Shown piece after piece: positions 7,144 to 36,615 of a DNA stretch of 64,000 nt. Source of the stretch: a virus (Duplodnaviria; Caudoviricetes). Each line of letters opens with the position of its first letter. Position 1 is the stretch's first letter. The notes under the pieces are model-generated. The model had not been told where the DNA came from. It saw nothing but the letters and a program-made list of their open reading frames with translations, and ran no database searches. Made by a program: the position numbers and the translations under genes. The DNA lies in the IMG/VR virus record IMGVR_UViG_3300024255_001563, positions 64,001 to 128,000 of that record, one strand, 5' to 3'.

Positions 7144-7151
7144 TATTTATC
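7144..7151 (-). promoter_or_regulatory. T4-like late promoter
   Basis: GATAAATA in the 49-nt gap upstream of 99..7124. Confidence 0.7.
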
Positions 7152-17286: not shown

Positions 17287-17294
17287 TATTTATC
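17287..17294 (-). promoter_or_regulatory. T4-like late promoter followed by ~95 nt structured leader
   Basis: GATAAATA in the intergenic gap. Confidence 0.7.
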
Positions 17295-22165: not shown

Positions 22166-22173
22166 TATTTATT
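22166..22173 (-). promoter_or_regulatory. T4-like late promoter overlapping upstream stop codon
   Basis: AATAAATA, followed by CATATGTC identical to the 25417 promoter. Confidence 0.7.
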
Positions 22174-24858: not shown

Positions 24859-25320
24859 TTATGCGTCTTCTGTGAAATCGTCGTCATCGGTTCCAACTAA
24901 TGTGTTGTCGTCGCCAGCTTCTTCAACTTGTGCTGCACCGTCTGCTACAGATGTACTAAAGTTCCATGCTACACTTACACCATCATAAGCATTACTACCT
25001 GTTGCACTTGGTGCTGACAATGTAGCTTTACGTCCAGAAATTTTACTTACTGTGTATGTTTCTGCATCGTCCATTTTGAATGAAATAGCCATTTCGCCTT
25101 CTGCTAATGCTGCTGGTAGTTTACCAGTTGTTAGCGTACAAGTAAATAAGCCTGGTGTTTCAATTTCTTCACATACAAATTTCTTTGATGCTTTTTGCTT
25201 TACAATGTAACCTTCTTTAACTGCTGTGCCGTTATGAAAATTTACTTTAATTTCGTTGCCGCCTGCTGTAGGTCCTACGCCTGCTACACCGAATAATCGT
25301 TTGTTTAGTGGTCTTCCCAT
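24859..25320 (-). CDS. Putative virion (possibly head-associated) protein, 153 aa
   Basis: Strong SD AGGAG, own late promoter, capsid-like codon usage, first structural gene after the capsid gene. Confidence 0.65.
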   Translation of the reverse strand: MGRPLNKRLFGVAGVGPTAGGNEIKVNFHNGTAVKEGYIVKQKASKKFVCEEIETPGLFTCTLTTGKLPAALAEGEMAISFKMDDAETYTVSKISGRKATLSAPSATGSNAYDGVSVAWNFSTSVADGAAQVEEAGDDNTLVGTDDDDFTEDA

Positions 25321-25416
25321 TTTTTTTCTCCTATAAAAAGTAGTCCTATGCCCGTTCTATGAGCTACGCTGCGGGTACAGCATAAGTCCGCCTTGCGGCA
25401 CACTATCTGACATATG

Positions 25417-25424
25417 TATTTATC
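25417..25424 (-). promoter_or_regulatory. T4-like late promoter followed by ~90 nt structured leader
   Basis: GATAAATA just downstream of the 25432-25465 terminator. Confidence 0.75.
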
Positions 25425-25431
25425 AAATAAG

Positions 25432-25465
25432 AAAAAAGCCCGACACAGTTAAGTATCGAGCTTTT
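25432..25465 (-). terminator. Intrinsic terminator
   Basis: Minus strand reads AAAAGCUCGAUAC-UUAACU-GUGUCGGGCUUUUUU; the G-U pairs form only on the minus strand. Confidence 0.8.
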
Positions 25466-25678
25466 AATAATAAGGGTGATAGGTTGGACTTTGAGAATAC
25501 CAACAACCTCCTAGTAGCTCTCGCTAAATTCGGAGGAGCCTAGCATCGGATAGTTACTTCCAAAAACATATCTTTGTATCTCTACAATCATATGCTGCCA
25601 CTACAGCTACTAGCCAAGTTGTGTCACTACGCAACACCGTTCCTTGCACTATCTAACTTAGACCGTCGCCTAACTTAT
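25432..25678 (-). ncRNA. Candidate ~245 nt structured non-coding RNA with own sigma70 promoter and terminator
   Basis: Promoter at 25685-25712, terminator at 25432-25465, a 9-bp long-range inverted repeat CUAGUAGCU/AGCUACUAG and several hairpins; no ORF with a good SD. Confidence 0.55.
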
Positions 25679-25684
25679 GTAACT

Positions 25685-25712
25685 AATATAACATCATTAC
25701 AAACAATGTCAA
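25685..25712 (-). promoter_or_regulatory. Sigma70-type early promoter
   Basis: TTGACA-N16-TATATT with an extended -10 TG and an A/T-tract UP-like element upstream. Confidence 0.7.
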
Positions 25713-25734
25713 CCACTTTTTTTAAAAAAGTCAT

Positions 25735-25761
25735 AAAAAAAGGCCCCGTAGGGCCTTTTTT
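25735..25761 (-). terminator. Intrinsic terminator after major capsid gene (potentially bidirectional)
   Basis: Plus strand AAAAAAAGGCCCCGTAGGGCCTTTTTT: GC stem flanked by A and T tracts, about 20 nt past the gp23 stop. Confidence 0.9.
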
Positions 25762-25780
25762 CGTTATTATAAAAATAATA

Positions 25781-26959
25781 TTAGCTAAAGCTTACATTAC
25801 CATTAGTAATTGCAACGTTAGCTAAGTAATCAGCTGCGTTACCAAGCGATGATGCTGTGTTGTTTAACTCAACATATCCGTAACGTGTCATGAATGACAC
25901 TGTTGGTTCGAATGATGTTGGGTCAAGCACAACGCCTGAGCTCATTAGTGGGATGTATGGGCAATAGAATGCTGCTGCATCTGATTCACTTGAACCTTTG
26001 TAGCCAACTAGTACTGCTGTACCGTCACCTGCATATGTGTCTACATAGACACGCATTGCGTTATTTAATGTACCAACCATTTTAGTGTTAGTTGGTGCTT
26101 CAAATGTACCCTCTGTTGTACGTGCAAATGCGCTTGTAGTAGCACTTTGTAGAATTGTTAGCGCAAATGGGCTAACGACTGCAAAGTTACCTGCGCCTCT
26201 GCGTGTACGCTGAGCGATTAGGTTTGATGCACGGTTGATTTGTACTGCAAGTGCTGCATGCTCGTCACCAACAAATGTTGCTGTACCAGACACGCCCGCT
26301 TGGTCGTATGTTTCAACTGCTGCACCACTTAGTGTGCGTAAAGAAGCTAATACTTCTTGATCGATTTCAGCAGTAATCTCTTGTGCTAGAGCAGCCATAA
26401 TTTCTGCTTCAACATCAATACCATGTTGGGACTGAGCATCTTGAGCTGATTCAAACGTCCAACGAGCACTCAACTTACGAGTTTTCGCTTCAACAGTTTG
26501 CTTCAAGATCTGAATGCTTAGTTGATTACCAGCTGCACCTTCAAGAGCTGCTGTACTGTTTGCTGCACCAGGGTTTGCTTCATCACCTGAATATGATGTT
26601 GCAATTTTGAATGGGCTTAGAGCCTCTTCACCTGCTGTTGCACCGTTGGCGCCCGCATTCACAGTGTCGCTATAACGAACACGTAGAGTGTGGATTTGAC
26701 CAACTGGACCAGTCATAGGCTGAACACCTACGATTTCATTAGCAATGACTGTTGGCATTACACGTCTGATCACTGGTAGGATCACACGATTTAGAGTTGC
26801 TACGTTACCGGCAGAAGTAGCGCCTGCAGTGGCTGTCTCTGACAAATACTTACGTGTATTTTCCAAAGTTGCGGCCATTACAGATTTCTTGTTGCCATTT
26901 AGGCCTTCAAGAAGTGCTGTCTTCGTATCCTGCCAGCGACTTTCTAGTAGTTCTGACAT
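25781..26959 (-). CDS. gp23: Major capsid protein, T4 gp23-like
   Basis: ILPVIRRVMPTVIANEIVGVQPMTGPVGQI, KTRKLSARWTFESAQD, FYCPYIPL, FMTRYG: hallmark gp23 motifs. Confidence 0.97.
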   Translation of the reverse strand: MSELLESRWQDTKTALLEGLNGNKKSVMAATLENTRKYLSETATAGATSAGNVATLNRVILPVIRRVMPTVIANEIVGVQPMTGPVGQIHTLRVRYSDTVNAGANGATAGEEALSPFKIATSYSGDEANPGAANSTAALEGAAGNQLSIQILKQTVEAKTRKLSARWTFESAQDAQSQHGIDVEAEIMAALAQEITAEIDQEVLASLRTLSGAAVETYDQAGVSGTATFVGDEHAALAVQINRASNLIAQRTRRGAGNFAVVSPFALTILQSATTSAFARTTEGTFEAPTNTKMVGTLNNAMRVYVDTYAGDGTAVLVGYKGSSESDAAAFYCPYIPLMSSGVVLDPTSFEPTVSFMTRYGYVELNNTASSLGNAADYLANVAITNGNVSFS

Positions 26960-30858: not shown

Positions 30859-30866
30859 TATTTATA
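30859..30866 (-). promoter_or_regulatory. T4-like late promoter overlapping portal stop codon
   Basis: TATAAATA, perfect T4 consensus. Confidence 0.75.
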
Positions 30867-34975: not shown

Positions 34976-35014
34976 CATAAATATACTGTATATATACTTA
35001 TAGTATTATTTATC
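34976..35014. promoter_or_regulatory. Face-to-face pair of late promoters
   Basis: CATAAATA on plus (34976-34983) and GATAAATA on minus (35007-35014). Confidence 0.65.
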
Positions 35015-36607: not shown

Positions 36608-36615
36608 TATTTATA
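36608..36615 (-). promoter_or_regulatory. T4-like late promoter
   Basis: TATAAATA upstream of 36110..36583. Confidence 0.75.

Follow-up and report, generated by a model that had tools for sequence, protein, structure and literature searches.

A divergent manA RNA in a probable stand-alone gene beside the capsid gene of an uncultured jumbo phage

The manA RNA family (RF01745; Weinberg et al. 2010, PMC2864571) was put forward as a 'riboswitch candidate' in 2010 and has stayed an orphan ever since. A preprint (bioRxiv 10.64898/2026.07.01.735769) describes RNA-only cages made by manA RNAs in the test tube: pentamers, decamers and an icosahedral-like cage of 60 subunits were seen by cryo-electron microscopy (cryo-EM), held together by the kissing loops L5-L7' and L8-L9', and another manA variant makes L6-P6' GNRA-receptor, L5-L7' and L3-L8' contacts. 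A 'pseudoknot?' is already marked in the manA figure of 2010, in which the loops that it joins could not be made out (PMC2864571). Here we analyse a 64,000-nt stretch of viral DNA (the window), positions 64,001 to 128,000 of the 200.8-kb IMG/VR record IMGVR_UViG_3300024255_001563, which derives from an uncultured phage. The element in question is a short unit on the minus strand, positions 25712-25432, which a sequence-only reading, made without database searches, had described as an early noncoding RNA (ncRNA) gene. We find that this unit is probably a stand-alone gene for a divergent manA RNA, carried by a jumbo phage with a T4-type (gp23-like) capsid.

The RNA of the window resembles the described manA RNAs in its full-length alignment with the same order of nine helices, in the signatures GACG in the loop on P1, GUG after the 5' strand of P2, GGUA...UCC in P9 and CAC in the 3' tail, in the complementarity of loops L5 and L7 and of loops L8 and L9, and in its occurrence in T4-type phages from aquatic metagenomes. 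It differs from them in its lower Rfam score (42.5 bits, below the cut-off of 55.2), in a P3 internal loop and loop words that depart from the consensus, in forming a closed unit with its own promoter and terminator instead of a 5' untranslated region (UTR), and in its carrier, a jumbo phage of the Vibrio 2.275.O/Phosso/PA5oct capsid lineage and not a cyanomyovirus. The interface loops of the manA cage, L5-L7' and L8-L9', are complementary here, with strong covariation of L8-L9, and the L6-P6' contact of one manA variant uses a GNRA-type loop, L6 of the window RNA being GAGA. The cage structures were obtained from other members refolded in vitro.

Riboswitches that terminate transcription also have a complex conserved fold followed directly by an intrinsic terminator, but the window RNA differs from them in lacking a conserved antiterminator pairing, in having variable downstream genes, and in that the downstream gene has its own promoter. 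The pRNA of phage phi29 (RF00044) is transcribed early and assembles into a ring by way of intermolecular 4-nt loop pairs that co-vary. Both pRNA and the window RNA are phage RNAs of approximately 170-250 nt with a host-type early promoter, and both have covarying loop-loop pairs of roughly 4 nt, through which pRNA does multimerise and the window RNA may do so. The two have no similarity of sequence or model, and whereas all members of its phage group carry pRNA and need it, the manA cassette is dispensable. ROOL (RF03087) and GOLLD (RF01998), which are reported as RNA-only multimers, are likewise phage-encoded, highly structured ncRNAs of unassigned function that are sometimes tRNA-adjacent; they measure 400-800 nt and belong to unrelated families.

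Membership in the manA family was established by a local Rfam scan and by comparison with related phages. A permissive scan of positions 25250-25850 gave 34 matches at E up to 10, among them a full-length match of the RNA core to manA (model positions 1-192; 42.5 bits, E 1.3e-9), and a manA search of the whole genome gave one single hit, the same RNA (E 1e-10). The sequence-only reading had left the RNA unclassified, an assessment that has to be withdrawn in favour of RF01745; it had noted correctly that transfer RNA (tRNA), transfer-messenger RNA and signal recognition particle signatures are lacking, yet a known Rfam family is matched. The other local matches (STnc130, csRNA, NsiR1, Trp leader and others) were rejected, being far under their cut-offs and driven by the terminators. 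The manA score itself does not reach the gathering score of 55.2 bits, and membership therefore rests on bridging relatives and on shared architecture. The relatives, referred to by L numbers where needed, were 80 viral contigs with a capsid protein 80-91% identical to that of the window, together with contigs holding a 14-nt conserved word of the RNA. The homologous RNA matched manA over its full length at 30-48 bits in eight of the 11 relatives scanned with Rfam, and RNAs at the same position in a diverged set, with capsid proteins 85-88% identical, scored 79.9, 78.6, 56.4, 55.7 and 55.5 bits, above the manA cut-off. A covariance model (R1, from alignment A1) built only from the window and ten close relatives found the above-threshold manA RNAs of L017, L049, L026, L048 and L007 over their full length, at 60-73 bits and E 1e-22 to 1e-27; for the same-position RNAs of the diverged set as a whole, the R1 matches ranged from E 1e-18 to 1e-27. 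The R1 results and the graded Rfam scores therefore place the window RNA in a continuous series that includes undisputed manA RNAs.

By its matches and its fold, the window RNA is a divergent member of the catalogued manA family, and neither a new kind of RNA nor the message for a small protein; the Rfam gathering score misses this manA subfamily. One point of divergence is the internal loop of P3, for which the manA consensus has CUGAAUAA ... UAAG and the window has AAGGAACGG ... ACAACUUGG, while above-threshold relatives such as L017 retain AAUAA ... UAAG. The 'cis-regulatory' label of manA rests on location in the 5' UTRs of protein-coding genes, and does not suit the window RNA, which is separated from the next gene by a strong terminator and a separate late-promoter word. 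This location is a feature of classification and not a structural criterion.

The fold was recovered independently of the Rfam model. RNAalifold, applied unguided to eleven sequences, returned the manA architecture, in which hairpin P1 is followed by a closing stem P2 that surrounds hairpin P3, a three-hairpin domain P4(P5,P6,P7), and hairpins P8 and P9; 31 of the 55 pairs were compensatory. We then used 60 aligned matches, 55 of them distinct, for covariation analysis. Across the distinct relatives 94.7% of cells were in standard pairs and 49/55 pairs had changes on both sides. None of 500 shuffles reached the observed pairing or compensation, and partners slid by 1-3 columns paired in 32-44%. 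These data show by covariation that the RNA folds into the manA core. They also sort the helices that the sequence-only reading had proposed. The outer CCUCC/GGAGG and inner UAGC-GAGA-GCUA pairings were right and constitute the conserved P8. The pairing GAUAGU/ACUAUC was half right, in that GAUAG pairs, its partner being the CUAUC at 25482-25478 (forming P2) and not the ACUAUC of loop 7. The proposed AGGUUG/CAACCU was mis-registered relative to the covarying P9 stem GUUGG/CCAAC, and the 9-bp long-range pairing of CUAGUAGCU with AGCUACUAG is unconserved, the covarying P4 (CUAGUA with UGCUAG) and P8 being preferred. An AUAAG/CUUAU pairing of the ends is possible; it is AU-rich and has no consistent covariation. 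An Rfam scan and a covariation analysis in related phages, two of the checks that the sequence-only reading had itself suggested, gave a manA match and a compensatory fold, with no codon-level conservation.

Two further features of the fold were observed among the relatives. Loop L6 is a GNRA tetraloop, GAGA, at 25579-25582 (minus strand), and is GAGA or GAAA in nearly all relatives, with GUGA and UAGC in two. L177 (4200-4400) contains a deletion variant in which the 5' half of the manA RNA is fused to the 3' end of a freshwater-2 leader and the downstream ATG.

The RNA is bracketed by signals for transcription initiation and termination that are conserved in the relatives (Table 1). The promoter comprises a -35 hexamer TTGACA (25712-25707), the TG of an extended -10 (25693-25692) and a -10 hexamer TATATT (25690-25685), all on the minus strand, and it stands after the terminator of the capsid gene and behind an A-tract, as the sequence-only reading had stated. 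A promoter of the form TTGACx-N16/17-(TG)n-TATATT, or a near variant, lies 13-26 nt 5' of the RNA in 41/41 distinct relatives scanned, with a T-run or A-run before the -35 hexamer in most of them. An intrinsic terminator begins 4-18 nt past the RNA in 41 of the 56 distinct RNA-plus-flank sequences, with a folding free energy (dG) of -10 to -18 kcal/mol; the stem sequences differ among lineages at this homologous position. Transcription would start approximately 7 nt past the -10 hexamer and end in the U-tract of the terminator, giving a product close to the 245 nt estimated earlier. The picture of an independently transcribed, insulated and structured ncRNA within the late structural cluster, with a second intrinsic terminator followed by a late promoter, is accordingly borne out by the conserved promoter, the conserved terminator and the covarying fold. 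As a side observation, the 5' arm of the terminator repeats the CUAUCA of the RNA 3' strand in L002, L132, L163, L001 and L031, where the 3' strand of P2 is a second possible partner for the 3' arm of the terminator; this is neither family-wide nor significant overall.

The promoter is of the host type. The genome holds approximately 18 intergenic promoters of the class TTGACA-N16-18-TAnnnT, and that of the manA unit is the only intergenic one in the first 36 kb of the window, a region of head genes with long open reading frames (ORFs) downstream; elsewhere in the genome the same class precedes non-structural genes. Early timing, which follows from the promoter class, is a reasonable inference and not an observation. 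From the conserved promoter and terminator, we infer that a discrete RNA of approximately 247 nt is made by the host RNA polymerase, probably from early in infection.

We also determined how the RNA is distributed among related phages, and what follows it. Of 63 informative capsid loci, 25 contain the RNA and 38 do not, and in most carriers it lies directly 3' of the capsid gene. The most frequent element after the RNA is the freshwater-2 gene, so called here for the freshwater-2 RNA motif in its leader. In L145, L084 and L140 an unrelated ORF follows behind the same late word. In three relatives (L024, L100, L180) a tRNA-Gly(UCC) begins only 5 nt 3' of the RNA and the terminator comes after the tRNA, suggesting a manA-tRNA co-transcript that would need processing. 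A second context was found in L089, L128, L186 and L111, where the promoter-RNA unit lies between genes for translation-initiation-factor-like and S21-like proteins on one side and an Hsp20 gene on the other; here the RNA has no terminator, and approximately 300 nt of further conserved sequence follow. This spacer had no Rfam match. It holds a long hairpin, and the same hairpin occurs after the capsid-linked manA RNA in L147, with apparent compensatory changes. Among cultured phages the nearest relatives by capsid protein are Vibrio 2.275.O, Phosso and PA5oct; in these no manA RNA was found genome-wide, an absence that is weakly shown as the control genomes were also matchless; only about 100-120 nt follow the capsid gene in these three phages.

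The gene downstream of the RNA appears to have a promoter of its own. The word GATAAATAC, or (G/T)ATAAATAC, is conserved just 5' of the freshwater-2 leader in relatives, and it is kept in the cassette-less relatives L019, L005 and L051, which have the order capsid gene, terminator, GATAAATAC, freshwater-2 and gene. The T4 late promoter consensus is TATAAATA. Within the window ATAAATA is strongly under-represented (14 copies; 37 +/- 6 expected), and eight of these copies are found 6-101 nt 5' of a same-strand ORF. Its rarity and placement therefore fit a late promoter word of the T4 type. A further conserved word, ACATTATAACCCATTTT, was observed between the manA terminator and the late word, 10-45 nt past the terminator, in L028, L171, L039, L176, L055, L057 and others; it does not occur in the window.

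The loops that hold the manA cages together were then compared among the relatives. The L5-L7 contact is UAGU:ACUA in the window and UGGU:ACCA in the Rfam consensus. For L8-L9, in 28 of 35 distinct combinations from the close subfamily the 4-nt L9 word, taken at fixed positions, is matched exactly by a complement in the L8 region, and in 32/35 if a wobble pair is allowed; mismatched L8/L9 partners were complementary in 50 of 1006 cases, and a permutation test gave 0/2000. Six L8:L9 word pairs occur: GAGA:UCUC, AUGA:UCAU, AGGA:UCCU, CAGA:UCUG, CUGA:UCAG and GUGG:UCAC. This covariation indicates that the L8-L9 pairing is under selection. Taken with the closed gene and its cassette behaviour, it argues for selection in vivo on the loop contacts that were observed in vitro, and for manA working as a free RNA and not as a switch in a gene leader. 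The word pairs are natural compensatory variants with which assembly and its specificity could be tested.

We therefore favour a free-acting RNA, on the strength of the insulation of the unit, its behaviour as a cassette, its variable neighbours, the loop covariation and the structures of the preprint. The RNA would probably self-assemble, its copies joining into pentamer-based multimers through the L5-L7' and L8-L9' contacts, and would not serve as a switch for a neighbouring gene. A number of observations weigh against this interpretation. The Rfam score of the window RNA is under the curated cut-off, and the start, end, 'early' timing and termination efficiency of the transcript are all predictions. 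Three relatives (L039, L154 and L135) have no L8-L9 complementarity, and covariation of L5-L7 is not significant within the subfamily, where these loops are too invariant (204/2000 permutations reach the observed value). Covariation of L8-L9 cannot separate an intramolecular from an intermolecular contact. The manA RNAs examined by cryo-EM are other, distant members, assembled in vitro at high RNA concentration (bioRxiv 10.64898/2026.07.01.735769). Finally, transcriptional riboswitches classically have the same arrangement, an aptamer with an immediate terminator, and both Rfam and the 2010 paper (PMC2864571) place manA among the candidate cis-regulatory riboswitches. In the S21-like/Hsp20 context the promoter is the same and the terminator is missing, such that the RNA could be part of a 5' UTR, and the gene downstream is an ibpA-type chaperone gene; the 2010 description lists genes of this type downstream of manA RNAs (PMC2864571), and this echo is the main support for a cis-acting role. 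In the window, a riboswitch or attenuator would let a ligand or condition set the read-through at 25465-25432 into the freshwater-2 leader and the 153-aa gene. We consider this unlikely. The arms of the terminator were not systematically complementary to the 3' 70 nt of the RNA, pairing no better than shuffled arms (mean z -0.30 and -0.59), and in 41/41 cases the full transcript has a minimum-energy structure that contains both the manA fold and the terminator; given the lack of arm complementarity and the intact terminator, no expression platform was found. The downstream gene has its own conserved late-promoter word, which outlasts the cassette in relatives, and the cassette is missing from most of the related loci. 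Nor is there a consistent class of regulated gene, since a freshwater-2 gene, unrelated ORFs, tRNA-Gly or Hsp20 may stand downstream.

The position beside the capsid gene raises the question of whether the RNA has a structural or packaging role at the capsid comparable to that of phi29 pRNA, with a multimeric ring or cage docking on the prohead. The location directly 3' of the capsid gene in most carriers, the host-type promoter, the covarying 4-nt loop-loop words and the pentamer-based assemblies of manA RNAs in vitro (bioRxiv 10.64898/2026.07.01.735769) would all suit such a role, yet the local scan gave no match to the Rfam pRNA model (RF00044) at E up to 10, the RNA also adjoins translation and chaperone genes, and classic manA RNAs lie near metabolic genes, two of them in bacteria (PMC2864571). 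In addition, 60% of closely related capsid loci lack the cassette, as do the three cultured relatives (the latter absence being weakly shown), and the RNA therefore cannot be essential for capsid assembly. A packaging function is thus quite improbable. There is next to no chance that the unit is a messenger RNA for a 26-residue peptide with the RNA structure as a translational switch, which the sequence-only reading had allowed. The ATG-initiated 26-codon ORF that it had reported on the RNA strand does exist, and the six nearest sequences retain it; three more-distant relatives likewise have a frame of 26 codons, encoding a largely different peptide. Among the approximately 50 other relatives, however, the frame mostly ends after 0-12 codons or has no start codon (AAG, TAG, TTC or GTT in its place), the variable columns are spread equally over the codon positions (22/23/22), no Shine-Dalgarno site was seen in the sequence-only reading, and the covarying helices P6-P8 fully explain the region. 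The peptide-coding reading of 25591-25511 was rejected on the unconserved frame and the lack of codon-position bias.

A bolder extension of the free-RNA interpretation is that the manA RNA is made early and self-assembles in the infected cell as a pentamer-based particle, the six L8-L9 word pairs having diversified among closely related phages as lineage-specific 'addresses' by which each RNA assembles only with itself. We regard this as unlikely. What the evidence shows is limited to selection on the loop pairing and to the RNA being a separate gene beside the capsid gene. If true, it would represent a natural orthogonal RNA-nanocage system, which might resemble phi29 pRNA in acting at the five-fold sites of the capsid, or might serve to soak up a host factor.

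Table 1. Positions of the manA unit, its parts and its surroundings in the window, and of related features in relatives (L numbers; positions are those of the respective contig).
Feature	Position	Strand	Basis or remark
Major capsid (gp23-type) gene, 392 aa, upstream neighbour of the RNA unit	25781..26959	-	PHROG 138 major head protein, E 8e-100
Intrinsic terminator of the capsid gene	25735..25762	-	12-pair stem + T-run
A/T-rich tract before the -35 hexamer	25713..25730	-	read from sequence; putative UP-element-like function
sigma70-type promoter	25685..25712	-	TTGACA-16-TATATT + TG, 11/12 matches
Primary transcript, ~247 nt, predicted	25432..25678	-	promoter and terminator positions
manA-family RNA core, 201 nt, helices P1-P9	25473..25673	-	Rfam RF01745 match, RNAalifold, covariation
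Loop L5, GUAGU, complementary to L7	25600..25604	-	UAGU:ACUA, 4 bp
Loop L7, AGUAACUA	25551..25558	-	complementary to L5
Apical loop L8, GAGA, on inner P8 stem UAGC/GCUA	25519..25522	-	complement of L9 core
L9 core word UCUC, within loop 25499-25488	25493..25496	-	complement of L8
26-codon ORF within the RNA, judged non-coding	25511..25591	-	unconserved in relatives
Intrinsic terminator of the RNA gene	25432..25465	-	13-pair stem 25465-25434, dG ~-15.6 kcal/mol, U-tract to ~25432
Late-promoter-like word GATAAATAC, serves next gene	25416..25424	-	conserved just 5' of leader in relatives
freshwater-2 RNA motif (RF02980), 85 nt	25318..25402	-	66.9 bits vs gathering score 49.9
Downstream ORF, 153 aa, unknown family	24859..25320	-	no Pfam/PHROG match
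ATAAATA, examples	7144-7150, 17287-17293, 22166-22172, 30859-30865, 35007-35013, 36608-36614	-	word count
manA + tRNA-Gly spans	L024 4289-4573; L100 4157-4439; L180 777-1058		
Second (Hsp20) context, example	L089 3640-4210		also L128, L186, L111
Glutamine riboswitch (RF01739)	L001 4234-4281; L033 4236-4282; L017 4233-4280; L007 3972-4021; L048 4666-4713		

All genes around the RNA unit are on the minus strand. The capsid protein shares approximately 70% identity with its counterparts in cultured jumbo phages, among them Vibrio phage 2.275.O, Sinorhizobium phage Phosso and PA5oct. A blastn search of the region against 50,697 phage records gave no similarity, and the 153-aa protein encoded downstream matched no Pfam or PHROG family.

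The spacer after the capsid gene carries other elements in related phages, and looks like an insertion hot spot. In several relatives a glutamine riboswitch aptamer (RF01739; 43-55 bits, cut-off 35) separates the capsid gene from the manA cassette, such that three Rfam RNA families can follow one another within the spacer; this aptamer is absent from the window. Inserts of approximately 1-1.4 kb occupy the same interval in L028 (2160-3150) and L159 (7510-8850), and also in L057, L042, L144 and L177; their ORFs of 237, 67 or 338 aa matched no Pfam or PHROG family. PA5oct has a gene for a Hef-like homing endonuclease at the same post-capsid spot.

The freshwater-2 match lies outside the manA unit and spans the leader, Shine-Dalgarno site and ATG of the 153-aa ORF. 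To our knowledge, the motif has been found only in metagenomes, 5' of genes of unknown function. A literature search for 'freshwater-2' gave unrelated papers only. Here and in more than 15 relatives, the motif lies in the head-gene module of jumbo phages, directly after the capsid gene.

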